This document shows positions 455 to 38,366 of a stretch of 44,450 nucleotides of DNA, piece by piece. This stretch comes from a virus, in UHGV virus genome UHGV-0157893. One strand, 5' to 3'. The notes beneath the pieces were generated by a model that ran no database searches, was not told the origin of the DNA, and saw nothing but the letters and a program-made list of their open reading frames with translations. Within the stretch, counting starts at the first letter, position 1, and the number at the start of each line of letters is the position of its first letter. The position numbers and the translations under genes are program-made.

Positions 455-2251
455 TTAAACAATTTCGCTTAATTGCGCATCAGTTAATGCCTTATGCCAT
501 ACTCGAAAATTTCTGATATGACCAAATAAATGACGTTGTCCTGTCGTTGTCTGACCACCGATACGAATAGTTGCGGAGCTTTGAATATAAGTCCAGGTTG
601 TTTTTATTTCGCTGGATATACGTCCGTTACTTATTGCACATGTCAATTGATCTGCTTTTACACGCATCCCCATAACCATTTTTTCCAGCCCGGCATTTTC
701 ATTTATTCGTCGGTCTGAACCACTTATATTGCAATACGGAAAACCGTCGTACCCACCTGATGAACCAAACCCCATTTCGATCCCCGCTCCGGTTTGATGA
801 CCGCTGATATTAAAAACACGCGGTGCTGCATTTGGCGTTTTATACCAGTTCTTATGTACCTCACAAAGAACCGTAAAAGGAAGATTATAAAGGTTATTCT
901 TGATTGGGACTGTCACCATATCGCTTGCCCGCGTTGCCGGTGCCGTCCCCGTAACAATAAAAGATGATGCGCCTGTACCAGCCTCAATCTGTGGAGTGGT
1001 TACATCGAGATAATCCCCTGATGTAACCATCTGCCCTGTATCCGGAGAATACTGGACAAAACCACCAACCGTATTTTCTGTTGTATCTGCTTTTAATGTA
1101 GCCTCAAAAAATATCCAGCCAGTTGCATCATCCTTAACAGACCTTGCTGTAACACGGCTTGTCTGACCTGTCTTGCTAATTATGCGGGTGGTAAGGTTCA
1201 GGTTTGCTGCTCCTATTGATGTCCTTACCTCCCCATCATAATGTTCAAATAAAATACGAACGGCGATATTATCAACTTCACTTTTTACCCGACAGGATAT
1301 AGTTACATGCTTTTCGTCCCCTGAAGTATCAACCCCTCCGGCACTCGAATACAGTCCGATAATGGTATGCGCTTTACTTGTACCAACAATCGAATCCTGT
1401 ACGACAAACCGGCCATAATTAAACCCGAAACTATCTGCGCCTGTTTCTGTAACGTCCAGTGAAGTTGACTTATTCCACTTCGAAGGGTCTGTACTGTTCT
1501 GGAAGAAGTTCGTTCTTTGTCCCTCAATAAGCAGGCCATCACACTCAAATCGCGGCTCATTAATTTCCGCCGTTTTCAGTTCGCCAGATTTGTTGATATA
1601 TGTTGCCGTTGATGCGCGACTGAAATTAACCTGTTTATCACTGGCAACCTGAACCACATTATCGCCAATCTTCACTTTTTTATAACCCGGAGAATAGCCC
1701 GTAATCATATCCAGCGAATCATTAAAGGGCATCCACACATCCGGCAGCGGCTGTAAAACATACGCGTAAGGCTGCGCCGTCTGATTGGCGTATTCGTGGG
1801 CTTCGTCTCTGTATGTCTTAGCTGAATCGGCTGCGCTTGTCGCTGTTGTTGCAGCGTTGGTTGCAGTGGTAGCTGATTGTGATGCTAATTTTGAGGCTGA
1901 AATCACATCTTTGTTGTCGCTAAAAAATTCAACTGCGTCCGCTATTTCTGATTCTTTGCCCTGATAGTAACGCAGTGTTTCGGCGACATCCTGAGCAAGA
2001 CCATCCACAGAGATCGAATCTGAAAGCAGGATGCTAAATTTAGTTCCAGCCGGAATAGCCGGACTTGCCGCAGGAGTTACCGACAAACTTGTTGCGCTTT
2101 TTACCTTTGTGATTGAAAAAATCTGCACCGGATCGCTAATGGCAATAAGAGTGCAACCCACTCTGATCAGAGATAATGCGGCGTTGAATTCAGTCCCTGC
2201 CCCGGTAACTGTGTTTCCGCTAACAGCTATAGTGCCTGTTGTGTAAATCAT
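455..2251 (-). CDS. Side tail fiber protein with Ala/Thr/Ser-rich shaft and C-terminal lectin-like (LamG-type) domain
   Basis: 598 aa; ATG at 2251 with ACGGAG RBS; Stf-like ASQSATTATNAATTATSAADSAK repeat; C-terminal ...FRVWHKALTDAQLSEIV typical of ConA-like lectin ends; sits downstream of J. Confidence 0.75.
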   Translation of the reverse strand: MIYTTGTIAVSGNTVTGAGTEFNAALSLIRVGCTLIAISDPVQIFSITKVKSATSLSVTPAASPAIPAGTKFSILLSDSISVDGLAQDVAETLRYYQGKESEIADAVEFFSDNKDVISASKLASQSATTATNAATTATSAADSAKTYRDEAHEYANQTAQPYAYVLQPLPDVWMPFNDSLDMITGYSPGYKKVKIGDNVVQVASDKQVNFSRASTATYINKSGELKTAEINEPRFECDGLLIEGQRTNFFQNSTDPSKWNKSTSLDVTETGADSFGFNYGRFVVQDSIVGTSKAHTIIGLYSSAGGVDTSGDEKHVTISCRVKSEVDNIAVRILFEHYDGEVRTSIGAANLNLTTRIISKTGQTSRVTARSVKDDATGWIFFEATLKADTTENTVGGFVQYSPDTGQMVTSGDYLDVTTPQIEAGTGASSFIVTGTAPATRASDMVTVPIKNNLYNLPFTVLCEVHKNWYKTPNAAPRVFNISGHQTGAGIEMGFGSSGGYDGFPYCNISGSDRRINENAGLEKMVMGMRVKADQLTCAISNGRISSEIKTTWTYIQSSATIRIGGQTTTGQRHLFGHIRNFRVWHKALTDAQLSEIV

Positions 2252-9947: not shown

Positions 9948-10275
9948 TGTGTGGTTAAGTGGTAGCAAGGAGTGTTTCGGATTATTTGATAGCGAAGAAG
10001 TAGCCCTGGAAGAAGGCAGGATTCTTGAATGTAGTTTAGGCCATCCAGTGAAATATGCTGCTAATCCGGTACATATAGTTGATGAGGTGGAAGATATGAA
10101 CCCGAAAGATATTAATGGTAGCTTCACTGCTTATTATGCAGATTCTATGGACCAGTCTTGCCCTGGTGAAATACACGCAAAAGGTTTCCCGGCTGACGAT
10201 CCAGAAGCAAAACGCGAATACGAAAAAGCGGCGAAAGATTTCTGTATCGATAACCTTTCAGCATTCGATAAATAA
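9928..10275 (+). CDS. Hypothetical protein (moron cassette gene 2)
   Basis: ATG 9928 (MKKYSLDVW...), 115 aa, overlaps gene 1 out of frame (translational coupling). Confidence 0.55.
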   Translation: MKKYSLDVWLSGSKECFGLFDSEEVALEEGRILECSLGHPVKYAANPVHIVDEVEDMNPKDINGSFTAYYADSMDQSCPGEIHAKGFPADDPEAKREYEKAAKDFCIDNLSAFDK

Positions 10276-10284
10276 GGCGGCAAC

Positions 10285-10533
10285 ATGGGGCGGCGCAATC
10301 ACGGTGATTATGTGTACACGTTGAAACAGGCCGCCCGCCTCATCGGTTATCATGAACACGAATTTATTGATTTGCTGATTGAGCGCGGGATACTGTACCA
10401 GGTCTGTTTAACGCTGTACCCGAAAGCGAAATACCTACATGAAAAGTTATTCATCATCATGACGGATGAAAACCAGGTTAACCATTCATTCGTCACTGAT
10501 AAGGGCGTTAATTATCTGCGTGATAACTTATAG
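10285..10533 (+). CDS. Hypothetical protein with putative helix-turn-helix (moron cassette gene 3)
   Basis: ATG 10285 with AAGG RBS; YTLKQAARLIGYHEHEFIDLLIERGIL resembles excisionase/MerR-type HTH. Confidence 0.45.
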   Translation: MGRRNHGDYVYTLKQAARLIGYHEHEFIDLLIERGILYQVCLTLYPKAKYLHEKLFIIMTDENQVNHSFVTDKGVNYLRDNL

Positions 10534-34060: not shown

Positions 34061-34462
34061 TTACCACCACATATTAGTCAAGTATTCGTTAATATCCGGT
34101 AACAGGTCGCCGCGTTCGCGTACCTTGATAAACAATCGCCCTCTTTTTACCTTCCGGCAGCGGACAAATTTCATTGCGTCAACCTGGCTATCATCAGCCC
34201 AAAAACCGGAATAAGTTATAGCGTCAAATAATGCCTTCCCTACATTGTCAATATCGCGGCGTCTGTTATCTGGCGGTGCAATATACACCGTTATTGATAG
34301 CCTACACTTAAGATTAATTTTCAGATTAAGCAGTTTTATAATGTCTTTTACCTGCTCCCTGTATTCCTTACCTTCCTTGCTTATATAGTGGAAACCGCGC
34401 GAATGCCGGTAATATTTATTGTTCGATGGCGGGTAAGGCAGGCTAAAAGTATATTCATTCAT
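34061..34462 (-). CDS. rusA: Holliday junction resolvase RusA
   Basis: ATG 34462 (ATGA overlap with ninG stop); 133 aa; PPSNNKYY and DIDNVGKALFDA are RusA-type motifs. Confidence 0.8.
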   Translation of the reverse strand: MNEYTFSLPYPPSNNKYYRHSRGFHYISKEGKEYREQVKDIIKLLNLKINLKCRLSITVYIAPPDNRRRDIDNVGKALFDAITYSGFWADDSQVDAMKFVRCRKVKRGRLFIKVRERGDLLPDINEYLTNMWW

Positions 34463-35255: not shown

Positions 35256-35376
35256 AATGCTCCCTCCCTTTAAGGTGATTTCTACGCATTTCAGCGCTGC
35301 CGGATTTTTAAAGAGCATTTCGTTTGCTTGAAGTATACAAAATGGATACACGTAAACAAGACGAAAAGCGCCATTA

Positions 35377-35392
35377 TGTGACCTGTATCACA
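35377..35392. promoter_or_regulatory. Perfect TGTGA-N6-TCACA palindrome (CRP-consensus-like) in 160-bp intergenic region
   Basis: tgtgacctgtatcaca at 35377-35392, flanked by inverted copies of the GTATACAAAATGG / CCATTTTGTAAAC motif. Confidence 0.4.
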
Positions 35393-35414
35393 CAATGACG
35401 CCATTTTGTAAACT

Positions 35415-36179
35415 TCAGTCCGGTAAAACGCGGTTGAGCGTAGTACGATTGATGGCCCGGTCGTTAGCCAGGAATACAGCACGGGCAAAGCCACGCGGCG
35501 TTAGTGAGCGGATCATCTTAGTGCGTTTCGACTTTCCTCCTAACTTAGCGTGCTGCTTACTGTCTTCCCATTCATCAGGCATTGGCACAGGCAGGAATAG
35601 CGGCTGATTAAATCCATTCCCGCACCAGATACAAGTTTTCTTCGTGTATGCGTCGCGGTCGGCGATGTATTCCGGGAAGGCAGGATGTTTGTCATCTTCA
35701 GGCAGGTAGCCACCGTAAGCGCACGGGTTGAAGATAAAATCCGGCTTACGCCATAACGTTGACAGTGCGCCAACCGGATTTTCCACCATCCACGGGACGT
35801 GATACATGTCAGCCAGCGTTTCTACCAGTTTTGCGTTATATGCCGCCTTCACCTGGAAGTCAGGATCTTTTTCACGCTTGCTGGCAAACCAACGAGCGCC
35901 GGACACGGCTAGATGGTCGCATGGCGGGAAGGCCAGAATAATGTCAGGATCTGGATAAACAGACAAATCAGGGGAGAACATCACCAGGAAATGGCTGTCA
36001 ATCCATACGTTAACGTATTCAATATTCGGATGAATGATTTTTACGCCTTCATAGTCGCCGTGGTTAGCGCCGTCATAGTTGAAGCAATAACACTTATAGC
36101 CAGCGTCAGCCCAATCTTTAACGGCGTACCCGCTGCCGTCGTACAGCGACCACACCACCCAATTTTTAAGCCCACTCAT
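35415..36179 (-). CDS. Putative DNA (cytosine-5) methyltransferase-like protein
   Basis: ATG 36179 with GAGGG RBS; SLYDGSGYA (motif I-like), FPPCDHLAVSGARW (PC motif IV-like), MVENPVGAL (ENV motif VI-like); short for a C5-MTase, so tentative. Confidence 0.4.
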   Translation of the reverse strand: MSGLKNWVVWSLYDGSGYAVKDWADAGYKCYCFNYDGANHGDYEGVKIIHPNIEYVNVWIDSHFLVMFSPDLSVYPDPDIILAFPPCDHLAVSGARWFASKREKDPDFQVKAAYNAKLVETLADMYHVPWMVENPVGALSTLWRKPDFIFNPCAYGGYLPEDDKHPAFPEYIADRDAYTKKTCIWCGNGFNQPLFLPVPMPDEWEDSKQHAKLGGKSKRTKMIRSLTPRGFARAVFLANDRAINRTTLNRVLPD

Positions 36180-36679
36180 TTTCTGCCCTCAAACGTAAAA
36201 TAGCGGCGCATGATGATAGTGATCACCGTTACCGCTGCCATTTTTGAGATGAATTGCATAGCTGATATTTCCGGCATAAATGCCATAAACGATAGCGTGG
36301 GAAAAATTAACGCATCTCCAATGGCTGAAGCTATATTTGCAGGCCAGCGTTTGGAATCGAAATCACCAGGTAAAACCCGGTAAACGCCGCCAGATATAAG
36401 CGCACCGGAAACAACCGCAACGAATGACGCGACCGCCACCATTCCGGCATCGTAGTTTATCAGCACCGTGATTGCGCCAGCGGCTGCGCACGTTGTAGCC
36501 GACCATTTCAGGCCGCCGTCATATAACAGAAAGTCGCGGATCATCATATTGACACACACTGCGGCTACCGTGGTGATCGGAATTACCCACGGGCCGCAAT
36601 GGTTAACAATAAGGTTGATGATCACGAAAACGGCGACATAAACGCAGGCCAGTAACCTGTCAATTGTCACCTTTTTCAT
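36176..36679 (-). CDS. Integral membrane protein (about 5 TM helices)
   Basis: ATG 36679 with AGAGGGA RBS (track start TTG 36709); hydrophobic throughout. Confidence 0.5.
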   Translation of the reverse strand: MKKVTIDRLLACVYVAVFVIINLIVNHCGPWVIPITTVAAVCVNMMIRDFLLYDGGLKWSATTCAAAGAITVLINYDAGMVAVASFVAVVSGALISGGVYRVLPGDFDSKRWPANIASAIGDALIFPTLSFMAFMPEISAMQFISKMAAVTVITIIMRRYFTFEGRK

Positions 36680-37145
36680 TTTGGTTATCCCTCTTCCGAC
36701 TGAAGTCAAAATTCAAATCAAGCGAATCAGTAGTACAACGACATTGAGGGTTAAGCATTGAAGGAGGCAAGCCCTTACAGCTTGTTATTGCTGCATCATT
36801 TATTATTCCATCATTAATATTGGCGGCAGTGAACTGTTTTTTCTTCCGTTCTTCCTCCTGATCGTTTAATATCTGCTCCGCTTTTAGTGCGCTGTAGCTA
36901 ATCAAGTCAACCAAAGTGTCAGTAGGATCGCTTTCATTAACTAAAATGGCCTCTAAACGCGCCTCCTTGAGACAAATTAATAGATCCCATACATCAAGCG
37001 GGGTTAAATTTGTCCCCTTCTTAGCGTTGTATATAGTGGCTATTTTTGGCGCTGATTTTTCTTCTTTTCTGTCGTAACCGTTTTGTTTACCTCTTTGCTC
37101 TATTGTTTCCGCTGCAAGTCGTAATAAATCTGCTGCATTAGTCAT
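36660..37145 (-). CDS. Hypothetical protein
   Basis: ATG 37145 with AGAGGTG RBS; overlaps Dam stop by 8 nt. Confidence 0.5.
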   Translation of the reverse strand: MTNAADLLRLAAETIEQRGKQNGYDRKEEKSAPKIATIYNAKKGTNLTPLDVWDLLICLKEARLEAILVNESDPTDTLVDLISYSALKAEQILNDQEEERKKKQFTAANINDGIINDAAITSCKGLPPSMLNPQCRCTTDSLDLNFDFSRKRDNQNEKGDN

Positions 37146-37677
37146 TATCTGCACCTCTTGCATATAGCTCTTTACGTGTTATCTGCGTGAAAATACATTC
37201 ATGTCTGCACCGTGGATGCCAGATCAAAAACAAGCTCCCTTTATTGTTTCCGCTTACTGGCTTACCAGTCGCAGCATTGATAAACGCCAGCCGCCCGCGC
37301 GTGATTAATCGGCACTCATTTGCCGTCTCAACGCCGTTCATAAACCAGCTAACAGAAACGTCAGCGGGCAATAACATTACGCAACCGATGTGATTTCGTT
37401 GATGTTCGAGCGCTGCTTTATCAACGAATGGACCTGGGTTTGAATATGGTGGATTCATCCATACATATTCGCCAGGCATTGCCACCGCTCCCCACGGATA
37501 AGTAAGCGCGTCCATTTCTTCAGTTATATACCGAGGAACGAGCGCGTTTTCCCTGTTTGCCGCCACATCTGCGACAAATTCGAACTCGCGATCCATTCCT
37601 CTAAAAACGGGTTTTGGCGTTTGCCATAAGTCTTTTATTTCTTTCGGCGTATGGCTGCCGCCGTAATCACTTTTCAT
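37138..37677 (-). CDS. dam: Phage-type DNA N6-adenine methyltransferase (Dam-like)
   Basis: ATG 37677 with AAGGGGG RBS; WMNPPYS (NPPY motif IV); 179 aa. Confidence 0.75.
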   Translation of the reverse strand: MKSDYGGSHTPKEIKDLWQTPKPVFRGMDREFEFVADVAANRENALVPRYITEEMDALTYPWGAVAMPGEYVWMNPPYSNPGPFVDKAALEHQRNHIGCVMLLPADVSVSWFMNGVETANECRLITRGRLAFINAATGKPVSGNNKGSLFLIWHPRCRHECIFTQITRKELYARGADND

Positions 37678-37686
37678 TACGCCCCC

Positions 37687-37920
37687 TTAGAAATAATCCT
37701 GTTTCGTTCCCCAACGGTTGTTTAAATACCCCACCAACCACACAAAGCGCTCAATGCTGATTAGTGGGGCGACTTTGCGATAATGCTTATCTAATATCAT
37801 CCGCGTGGCTTTATCGCTGTAGCCGTTTTTCTCTACCTCCGCTTTGCAGGCCGAAAGCGCGGCGCGGGCGGCAGTCTTTACGGCGTTAAATTGCGGCTCT
37901 GACATATTGAATAAGGCCAT
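37687..37920 (-). CDS. Hypothetical protein
   Basis: ATG 37920 with GGTGA RBS (track ORF extended upstream in-frame). Confidence 0.45.
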   Translation of the reverse strand: MALFNMSEPQFNAVKTAARAALSACKAEVEKNGYSDKATRMILDKHYRKVAPLISIERFVWLVGYLNNRWGTKQDYF

Positions 37921-37924
37921 AGGA

Positions 37925-38161
37925 TCACCATGTGTCAGTCCAATCCGGCGCGGCAGTCCAGCAAAAACCAATGAATGCGCTAACAGCCAATAAAGCGCGG
38001 GCTGCAAAAAGAATATTCCCAATGTCGTTAAATTCAGGAAGCGACCACGTAATAAACATAGCCCCCAGCATAATAACACCGATAACAGTCATGGCCGCCA
38101 GGAAAACAAAAAGCGTAGCCAAAAGCCACGCCCCCAACCAGTTAAAAAAGCTCTTAAGCAT
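37925..38161 (-). CDS. Small membrane protein (two TM helices)
   Basis: ATG 38161 with GAGGA RBS; track start TTG 38176. Confidence 0.45.
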   Translation of the reverse strand: MLKSFFNWLGAWLLATLFVFLAAMTVIGVIMLGAMFITWSLPEFNDIGNILFAARALLAVSAFIGFCWTAAPDWTDTW

Positions 38162-38162
38162 T

Positions 38163-38366
38163 TTAAACGTCCTCAATTACCCCGCCTTTCACGCGCTCTT
38201 TAATATCCCATACGTGAGGCTTGCATATTTCCTGATAATAGTGATCCGGCCTGCTGCCGAAATACCATTTGCCATCCATATAAAAATAAACGCCAGAATA
38301 ATTTCCTGGCGCTGCCTTTGTTGCTGCTTCTGGAATTTTCCATTCCATGTAATGTTTAAATTTCAT
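38163..38366 (-). CDS. Hypothetical protein
   Basis: ATG 38366; 67 aa; no clear RBS. Confidence 0.4.
   Translation of the reverse strand: MKFKHYMEWKIPEAATKAAPGNYSGVYFYMDGKWYFGSRPDHYYQEICKPHVWDIKERVKGGVIEDV

Follow-up and report, generated by a model that had tools for sequence, protein, structure and literature searches.

Two orphan-type DNA methyltransferase genes, a DUF6378 gene and a YhhQ-like membrane protein gene in a mEp021-like coliphage genome

The virus genome UHGV-0157893 (44,450 nucleotides; this whole stretch is called the window below) carries two genes for DNA methyltransferase-like proteins, and between them lie genes for a membrane protein and for one further protein. This arrangement raises the question of what the two methyltransferases are and whether the four genes act together. 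We put a probability of about 0.72 on the reading that these are four accessory genes transcribed together as a block, namely two independent orphan methyltransferases, a YhhQ-like protein and a DUF6378 protein, which have become neighbours through lineage history. The source of the window is a mEp021-like (mEpimmI group) temperate coliphage or prophage. The region shows 87–91% identity, with matching annotations, to mEp021, mEp010 and MagusPhagus, and of 5426 complete E. coli genomes 35 carry it. The window represents another member of the group than mEp021, and prophages in three of the complete E. coli genomes match it with 100% identity.

Four tightly packed minus-strand open reading frames fill positions 35415–37677 (Table 1), a layout that agrees with the preliminary description of two methyltransferase-like genes flanking a membrane protein and a 161-residue protein. 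Adjoining genes overlap by 8 nt (Dam/DUF6378), 20 nt (DUF6378/membrane protein) and 4 nt (membrane protein/C5 enzyme), the last overlap being an ATGA. Since these overlaps of 4–20 nt are followed directly by a terminator-like hairpin, the four genes can be taken as one transcription unit, of which the hairpin is the end. The annotated TERM_4 of mEp021 lies in the same relative place, and in the mEpimmI group nutR2 and t4 are located downstream of the methyltransferase gene (PMC11893012). An ipe-like gene is probably part of one transcription unit with the Dam gene; the mEp021 gene in this position is annotated as "ipe: inducer of pleiotropic effects", and further terminator-like hairpins are found upstream of it in the window (38313–38289 and 38135–38109). 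Directly downstream of the four genes are a NinF-like open reading frame, NinG, RusA and the antiterminator Q, and the earlier placement of the locus in a nin-like region is therefore correct. In the list of open reading frames the DUF6378 gene starts at 37163 and encodes 167 residues. We chose the second ATG because it is preceded by a ribosome-binding-like AGAGGTG and because the homologues, named "DUF6378 domain-containing protein", are 161–165 residues long. The membrane protein frame extends back to a TTG at 36709.

Table 1. Features of the methyltransferase locus in the window.
Feature	Position	Strand	Details
ipe-like small gene	37687..37920	-	77 aa; phrog_303, E 3.1e-25; directly upstream of Dam
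Dam-like N6-adenine DNA methyltransferase (gene 1)	37138..37677	-	179 aa; NPPY at residues 75–78
DUF6378 protein (gene 2)	36660..37145	-	161 aa from second ATG; PF19905
YhhQ/VUT-family membrane protein (gene 3), short, divergent	36176..36679	-	167 aa from ATG; 6 predicted helices
Dcm-like C5-cytosine DNA methyltransferase (gene 4), compact	35415..36179	-	254 aa; motifs I, IV, VI
Intrinsic-terminator-like hairpin	35367..35402	-	16-pair stem, then T-run; 12 nt past C5 gene stop

By homology, gene 1 encodes a T1-type phage Dam, an N6-adenine methyltransferase, as had been proposed from its NPPY motif. The protein passes the cut-offs of both Pfam PF05869 (E 2.1e-52; 177.7 bits against 28.1) and the NCBIfam equivalog TIGR01712 (144.5 bits against 97.05), and it also matches phrog_111 (E 6e-65) and the PADLOC orphan-MTase model (E 2.6e-25). 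The product of the phage T1 gene annotated "DNA methyltransferase, similar to HP2 dam protein" shares 37% identity with it (E 1e-33), and the catalytic (D/N)PPY motif is present as N75-P-P-Y78 within VWMNPPYS, aligned with VWLNPPYS of T1 Dam. Family membership suggests that the target is probably GATC.

Gene 4 was less easily identified. No match for the window protein itself was found with Pfam PF00145 (even at E ≤ 10), in NCBIfam or among PDB sequences; PF00145 does match 12 of the 24 members of its family (best E 1.3e-6), and a profile of these 24 sequences reached only E 0.34 against DNMT3B. Because direct sequence searches found nothing, the assignment rests on the fold, the motifs and a homologue in phage KarlJaspers. 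The closest structural matches of the AlphaFold model (pLDDT 86) are C5 enzymes, among them DNMT3B and M.HhaI. Motif I, the SAM-binding loop, is L-Y-D-G-S-G-Y (residues 12–18), in which G15 and S16 are invariant and G17 nearly so, and in the profile alignment it pairs with SLFDGIATG of DNMT3B. Motif IV is P85-P-C87, with P86 and C87 invariant in the 24 sequences and aligned with SPC of DNMT3B. Motif VI had been given as ENV; it is in fact the invariant E133-N134-P135, in which proline replaces valine. The protein belongs to phrog_757 (E 6.1e-88) and shares 60% identity along its entire length (E 5e-101) with the "Dcm-like C5 cytosine methyltransferase" of KarlJaspers (Bas06, QXV82308.1). Its length, which had made the C5 assignment tentative, is normal for this compact family, whose members have 226–262 residues. 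We therefore regard the identification of gene 4 as a compact Dcm-like C5-cytosine methyltransferase, predicted from sequence and model, as well supported. An identical protein is called "hypothetical" in RefSeq.

The KarlJaspers homologue connects this enzyme with a phage defence system. The genomes of KarlJaspers and phage K42 share 95.4% identity (bioRxiv 10.1101/2023.08.16.553469), and the K42 enzyme is nearly identical to that of KarlJaspers. K42 Dcm (711 bp) raises 5mC on the msDNA of retron Ec86, as measured by LC-MS, and a quadruple mutant in C82, E128, K175 and K176 shows no such rise; the retron is triggered by K42 Dcm, and escaper phages carry dcm-disrupting mutations (bioRxiv 10.1101/2023.08.16.553469). 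The four mutated residues align exactly with C87, E133, K180 and K181 of the window enzyme. A short C5 enzyme can in this way be named with confidence and linked to a retron trigger that has been studied by experiment, and this connection predicts that retron Ec86 senses the mEp021-like prophage group. Carrying the gene would then have a cost to the phage, as the C5 enzyme is the type of protein that this retron senses. The CCWGG target of K42 Dcm was assumed by analogy with the host Dcm, with support from mutation of the msDNA motif only, and MG1655 hosts own a Dcm and yet, when the phage enzyme is absent, their msDNA has a low 5mC content (bioRxiv 10.1101/2023.08.16.553469), so that the specificity or substrate preference of the phage enzyme may differ from CCWGG. 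For the window enzyme CCWGG is, by the same analogy, a likely target, and at 60% identity its specificity may differ from that of KarlJaspers/K42 Dcm.

Both methyltransferases had been described as orphans, and this description holds. No restriction endonuclease gene is adjacent, the neighbours being the ipe-like, DUF6378, YhhQ-like and NinF-like genes, NinG, RusA and Q, and a Type II restriction-modification system was rejected for want of a cognate endonuclease gene next to either enzyme. PADLOC assigned to Dam its orphan-MTase models, which scored best, and weaker Type II MTase models, and gave nothing for the other proteins. An anti-restriction role is a reasonable proposal for both enzymes. 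We infer that in the window phage both would use SAM to methylate the replicating phage DNA, the T1-type Dam at the N6 position of adenine and the DNMT3-like C5 enzyme with Cys87 as the nucleophile and Glu133 as the proton donor, and that the progeny could thereby be protected from those restriction enzymes that m6A or m5C blocks.

The two enzymes could also be active methyltransferases whose main role is a different one, such as the control of phage or host gene expression, the timing of replication or packaging, or the avoidance of mismatch repair. The usual E. coli host, as K-12 illustrates, has its own Dam and Dcm, and extra methylation of GATC and CCWGG would add little protection there. 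Furthermore, both sites are over-represented in the window and not avoided (GATC, 207 observed versus 141 expected; CCWGG, 108 versus 50), a bias that we judge uninformative on the function of the methyltransferases. K42 Dcm is also reported to be toxic when over-expressed (bioRxiv 10.1101/2023.08.16.553469). However, the C5 family, found in 1517 of 50,697 phage records, occurs mostly in virulent phages, for which regulation of lysogeny is irrelevant. Phage DNA replication also outpaces the host methylases, the classical reason given for a phage-borne Dam, and many E. coli strains, including BL21, have no Dcm at all. A main role other than anti-restriction is accordingly thought unlikely.

The protein encoded by gene 2 had been listed as an unknown of 161 residues. 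The length stands, but the protein is not without a recognizable domain, as it matches DUF6378 (Pfam PF19905; E 8.7e-8, 32.8 bits against a cut-off of 27.1). The homologue search gave only close relatives from E. coli prophages. The first 100 or so residues are conserved, whereas the C-terminal tail varies, and the version in the related phage locus L085 has just 99 residues. No usable match was found in the PDB by sequence or by profile; the fold may be MazG-like. The "phosphofructokinase" labels that PHROGs gives to related families were discarded as they lacked support.

The membrane protein encoded by gene 3 had been described as having five transmembrane segments, whereas six helices are predicted, and the GenBank note on the mEp021 protein likewise gives six. 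Its likeness to YhhQ had escaped the first reading of the sequence. Direct comparisons gave no significant match: Pfam gave no match at E ≤ 0.1, and hence none to Vut_1 (PF02592), a PDB sequence search gave no match, pairwise BLAST against CAjan gp41 was not significant, and neither was hhalign of a shallow profile against E. coli YhhQ (probability 0.6%). A word-indexed search returned only 12 close relatives, while an exhaustive profile search opened a wider family, and 40 of the 43 relatives from the family profile match Vut_1 (best E 2.5e-15). With hhalign, probabilities of 88% (E 3.3e-6) against E. coli YhhQ and 97% (E 5.5e-11) against CAjan gp41 were obtained. CAjan gp41 falls in phrog_4899 together with the window protein, the latter and its relatives share conserved R-D and D-S-x-x-F-P motifs, and the model, of moderate confidence only, shows six membrane helices in an ECF-S/VUT-type fold. 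Through these intermediates and profiles, together with the predicted fold, the protein is recognized as a divergent, short homologue of the YhhQ/VUT family (COG1738), and PHROG 4899, labelled "unknown function", is on sequence grounds the phage-type YhhQ family. By analogy the protein is most likely a putative importer of 7-deazapurines (preQ0-type). The assignment as a transporter leans on remote homology, on a model of moderate confidence and on the putative annotation of CAjan gp41.

Relatives of this transporter were examined in 80 viral loci, where DpdA was detected through PHROGs (phrog_887), as Pfam misses even the CAjan DpdA. A DpdA gene lies close upstream in 32 of the 80. In many environmental phages the PHROG 4899 gene immediately follows DpdA, and the pair resembles a minimal salvage module of two genes. 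The importer in the window would be uncoupled from DpdA: tblastn queries with the DpdA of CAjan and with seven DpdA-like proteins encoded on viral contigs gave nothing below E 0.38 across the window, mEp021, MagusPhagus and L085, and no homologue of DpdA, FolE, QueC, QueD or QueE was found in the window or the rest of the related genomes. In Pfam scans of the large open reading frames outside the window, the only functions recognized were those of replication proteins, helicases, integrases and repressors. A hidden 7-deazaguanine DNA modification system was rejected, since neither DpdA nor genes for preQ0 supply were found. A temperate coliphage with a YhhQ-like transporter gene and no DpdA is a small, testable oddity.

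The preserved order of the four genes could suggest that they are one module that modifies DNA or tRNA bases by more than simple methylation, in which the YhhQ-like protein imports a 7-deazapurine or another precursor that DUF6378, the methyltransferases or both process or install. The order Dam-DUF6378-transporter-C5 is kept in all group members examined and in L085, whose proteins are 55–66% identical, the gene overlaps suggest translational coupling, and the transporter family, besides its pairing with DpdA, has a relative (P0133) two genes from an N6_N4 methyltransferase. In six kagunavirus-like loci a C5 relative, Dam and DUF6378 occur within 3 kb. Against such a module, no homologue of the pathway genes named above was found in the window or the related genomes, and K42 Dcm makes plain 5mC by itself from a plasmid (bioRxiv 10.1101/2023.08.16.553469). 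The co-occurrence of the genes speaks against it as well. We surveyed 80 viral loci with a C5 relative, 55 of them outside the mEpimmI group, over a span of about 4 kb. In 48 of these 55 the C5 relative had none of the other three genes detectable within that distance, and a transporter gene beside it was seen in the mEpimmI group only (0 of 55 outside). Conversely, the 80 transporter loci contained no Dam-like gene, no DUF6378 gene and only two weak C5 relatives. In a natural variant, L011/P0130, the Dam N-terminus is fused to the transporter C-terminus and DUF6378 is lost, and the C5 gene alone is intact. The four genes are probably independent of one another because the C5 relatives mostly stand alone, the variant has lost the others and the transporter loci lack Dam and DUF6378. 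The bracketing by methyltransferases is a lineage-specific arrangement and not a conserved module, and a common base-modification function is very unlikely. The four genes would be adjacent by lineage history and not as parts of one machine.

Conservation of the order at the identities seen in L085 is compatible with some functional coupling. It may be imagined that in coliphages without DpdA the YhhQ-type transporter is more than a leftover passenger and imports a 7-deazapurine or related precursor during lytic growth, for a novel use such as raising the queuosine of host tRNA to the benefit of phage translation, or a DUF6378-linked modification of nucleic acids. This would explain an order kept down to 55% protein identity; we nevertheless hold it to be highly doubtful.

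Least probable of all is that the 254-residue protein has a C5 fold with another chemistry or substrate, such as transfer of carboxymethyl from Cx-SAM or action on RNA, tRNA or single-stranded DNA instead of duplex phage DNA, for although the homologue's sole demonstrated substrate is a stem-loop, the retron msDNA, which host Dcm apparently methylates inefficiently, LC-MS gave 5mC with no carboxymethyl adduct and no cmoA-like Cx-SAM synthase gene lies nearby.

The locus can be compared with several known systems. Like T1 Dam, the window Dam carries the NPPY motif and has no restriction partner; it differs in its length (237 residues in T1), as the N-terminal region of about 40 residues and an internal insertion of the T1 protein are absent. 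The membrane protein resembles E. coli YhhQ and CAjan gp41, the latter from a 7-deazaguanine cluster (PMC7544227, PMC6884629), in its six helices, ECF-S-like fold and profile matches, but the window phage has neither DpdA nor preQ0 synthesis genes. In CAjan, deletion of yhhQ left DNA modification unaffected. The closest published system is gp30–gp33 of mEp021 (MH706966; PMC11893012), with the same four-gene order, the same neighbours and about 87% DNA identity. These are entered in GenBank (MH706966) as a putative N6-adenine MTase, a hypothetical protein, a putative membrane protein and a putative cytosine MTase, so there is little new in the methyltransferases, both families being common, known and annotated there; the published annotation does not tie the membrane protein to YhhQ or the C5 enzyme to a retron trigger. 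With KarlJaspers/K42 Dcm, from the Drexlerviridae, the window C5 enzyme shares membership of the compact phrog_757 family (about 230–250 residues), the conserved Cys, Glu and Lys-Lys residues and a predicted DNMT3-like fold. Compared with the KarlJaspers protein it is five residues longer at the N-terminus and carries a tail of some 13 residues, and it differs from both in that its gene belongs to a temperate mEp021-like phage and adjoins a YhhQ-like gene.

The evidence best supports reading the block at 35415-37677 as carrying two independent orphan methyltransferases, whose activities, targets and benefit we infer. The open reading frames and their junctions bear out the four genes of the preliminary description, all on the minus strand, with three details corrected. 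The junctions, read directly, overlap by 8 nt (ATGACTAA), 20 nt and 4 nt (ATGA), and each ATG is preceded by a purine-rich stretch. A hairpin of 16 pairs with a T-run starts 12 nt past the stop codon of the C5 methyltransferase gene, the last of the four; a terminator is marked after this gene in the GenBank record of mEp021, and nutR2 and t4 are located there in the mEpimmI group of Nus-dependent temperate coliphages (PMC11893012). Upstream of the Dam-type gene, an ipe-like gene and a hydrophobic ORF sit between it and terminator-like hairpins at 38313-38289 and 38135-38109, and probably share a transcript with the methyltransferases. Downstream of the block lie a NinF-like ORF, NinG, RusA and the antiterminator Q. 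In some relatives the RusA gene (L094:6711-7607 and L096:6711-7607), at the position of window 34061-34462, encodes a 298-aa HNH_3-RusA fusion compared with 133 aa in the window, which suggests an inserted homing-endonuclease-like domain. In L085, a more distant relative, a Lar-type restriction-alleviation gene (PF14354) directly follows Q (L085:9188-9415); no equivalent was apparent by eye among the window ORFs downstream of Q.

Coordinates of the block, its upstream neighbours and two DpdA-type/YhhQ-like gene pairs on viral contigs
Feature	Position	Strand	Source
Dam-type gene, 179 aa	37138-37677	minus	ORF list
DUF6378 gene, 161/167 aa	36660-37145 (or 37163)	minus	ORF list
Membrane protein gene, 167 aa; ORF extends back to TTG at 36709	36176-36679	minus	ORF list
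C5 methyltransferase gene, 254 aa	35415-36179	minus	ORF list
ipe-like gene ("inducer of pleiotropic effects" in mEp021)	37687-37920		
Hydrophobic 83-aa ORF	37925-38176		
DpdA-type + YhhQ-like pair	L121:9258-9995 plus 10001-10468		
DpdA-type + YhhQ-like pair	L102:648-1388 plus 1615-2097		

The Dam-type protein, with NPPY at residues 75-78, scores far over the curated cut-offs of Pfam PF05869 and NCBIfam TIGR01712, matches PADLOC orphan-methyltransferase models and is 37% identical to the phage T1 methyltransferase (E 1e-33, NPPY block aligned), upholding the proposed Dam-type N6-adenine methyltransferase. T1 Dam is specific for GATC.

The C5 protein has no matches of its own in Pfam, NCBIfam or PDB sequence searches. 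It falls in phrog_757 (E 6e-88), and since the 2612 matches of the homologue search are nearly all 226-262 aa, its short length is the family norm. Of 24 family members, 12 match PF00145 at E<=10, the best of them at 1.3e-6, and the family profile aligns with DNMT3B at motifs I and IV. A confident AlphaFold model (pLDDT 86) gave DNMT3-type chains as all of its best 50 Foldseek matches. Invariant in a 24-member alignment are G15/S16 (motif I), P86/C87 (motif IV), E133/N134/P135 (motif VI, ENP rather than the ENV first read), W143/R144, K180 and a C-terminal R-S-L-T-x-R-G block. With relatives in 1517 of 50,697 phage records (Drexlerviridae, Vequintavirinae-like, Kagunavirus, Webervirus, T4-like and others), the family is common.

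The protein earlier called unknown carries DUF6378 and has no match in the PDB by sequence. The N-terminal ~100 residues are conserved, with Q17-R-G-K20, N22-G-Y-D25, K27-E-E29, W53, K60, R63, D76, D80 and Y84 invariant. The C-terminal tail is hypervariable even between phages that are ~90% identical elsewhere (window 36660-36850 against L002, L004, L008 and L085) and absent from the 99-aa protein of L085; whole-protein identity is 57-100%, many loci aligning over the first ~105 residues only.

For the membrane protein, six helices replace the five originally counted. The homologue search found only a dozen close relatives, and an exhaustive profile search 259 distant ones; Pfam Vut_1 (YhhQ family) was matched by 40 of the 43 scanned, one of which is fused to a QueF-like domain. 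The relatives' profile matched E. coli YhhQ (probability 88%, E 3.3e-6) and CAjan gp41, a 159-aa "putative preQ0 transporter" (97%, E 5.5e-11), and gp41 (E 1e-47) shares phrog_4899 with our protein. On these grounds we take our protein to be a short and divergent YhhQ of phage type. In PHROGs v4, phrog_4899 bears the label "unknown function" despite its containing the CAjan protein. YhhQ homologues are already known from phages (PMC6884629), and in CAjan preQ0 modification does not require yhhQ (PMC7544227).

Counterparts with 87-91% identity to the region exist in the mEpimmI group (mEp010, mEp013, mEp021, mEp044, mEp515, mEp554) and in MagusPhagus. A search of 5426 complete E. coli genomes found the block in 35, each time in the chromosome, and 100% identical in three. 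The 100%-identical C5 enzyme and YhhQ-like protein are named "hypothetical protein" in RefSeq (NZ_CP095538.1 and others), and ~88%-identical C5 copies "DNA cytosine methyltransferase".

That the four genes are functionally coupled keeps a small probability because their order is retained in every group member examined and in L085, at 55-66% protein identity. For the most part, however, the block does not appear to be a module. Among 80 viral loci with a C5-gene relative, the YhhQ-like gene is confined to the mEpimmI group (0/55 outside it); in 48 of these 55 none of the other three genes was detected within ~4 kb, and Dam and DUF6378 lie 1.5-3 kb from the C5 relative in six kagunavirus-like loci of the 80. 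A natural deletion variant (L011:3657-4001, protein P0130, on 7 contigs) fuses the first ~32 Dam residues to the C-terminal ~82 of the YhhQ-like protein; DUF6378 is gone and the C5 gene intact. Around transporter relatives, no Dam-like gene or DUF6378 was found in 80 viral loci and a weak C5 relative in two, whereas a DpdA-type gene (phrog_887, the PHROG of CAjan DpdA) lies close upstream in 32. On these environmental IMG/VR contigs (L097-L176), the ~245-aa DpdA-type gene (phrog_887, E ~1e-69) and the short YhhQ-like gene (phrog_4899) shortly after it resemble a minimal salvage module of two genes, serving 7-deazaguanine modification of DNA; a preQ0 synthesis gene was detectable nearby in one locus of the 80 only (QueC, L097). 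DpdA, FolE and QueC/D/E homologues were not found in the window, mEp021, MagusPhagus or L085.

As independent orphan enzymes, both methyltransferases would be expressed from a delayed-early transcript between two terminators and would add methyl groups to adenine N6 and cytosine C5 of the phage DNA. The gain may be shielding from restriction enzymes blocked by methylation, and the cost exposure to retron Ec86-type sensors; the unrelated YhhQ-like importer and DUF6378 gene would be carried alongside. Whole-window counts gave no avoidance of the candidate sites: CCWGG occurs 108 times (50 expected) and GATC 207 times (141 expected), counts reached by no dinucleotide-preserving shuffle.

Both methyltransferase families are known, and GenBank labels the same genes of mEp021 putative N6-adenine methyltransferase, hypothetical protein, putative membrane protein (6 TM) and putative cytosine methyltransferase, so the block adds one more example to known kinds; the sole mild curiosity is that phages lacking DpdA retain a gene of YhhQ type. 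The closest studied counterpart is the 711-bp "dcm" of phage K42, the trigger of retron Ec86, which is disrupted in escaper phages, is toxic only with the retron present and increases 5mC on msDNA by LC-MS; the study hosts have their own Dcm, yet their msDNA was methylated only slightly when the phage enzyme was missing, and CCWGG as the target comes only from analogy with host Dcm and msDNA motif mutation. Its C82A/E128A/K175A/K176A mutant is inactive, its authors remarked on a DNMT3A-like predicted fold, and K42 is 95.4% identical to KarlJaspers/Bas06 (bioRxiv 10.1101/2023.08.16.553469). The 236-aa "Dcm-like C5 cytosine methyltransferase" of KarlJaspers (MZ501090) shares 60% identity with the window protein along the full length (E 5e-101), and in the alignment C82, E128, K175 and K176 pair exactly with C87, E133, K180 and K181, which, together with the DNMT3-type fold matches, supports the once tentative C5 assignment.
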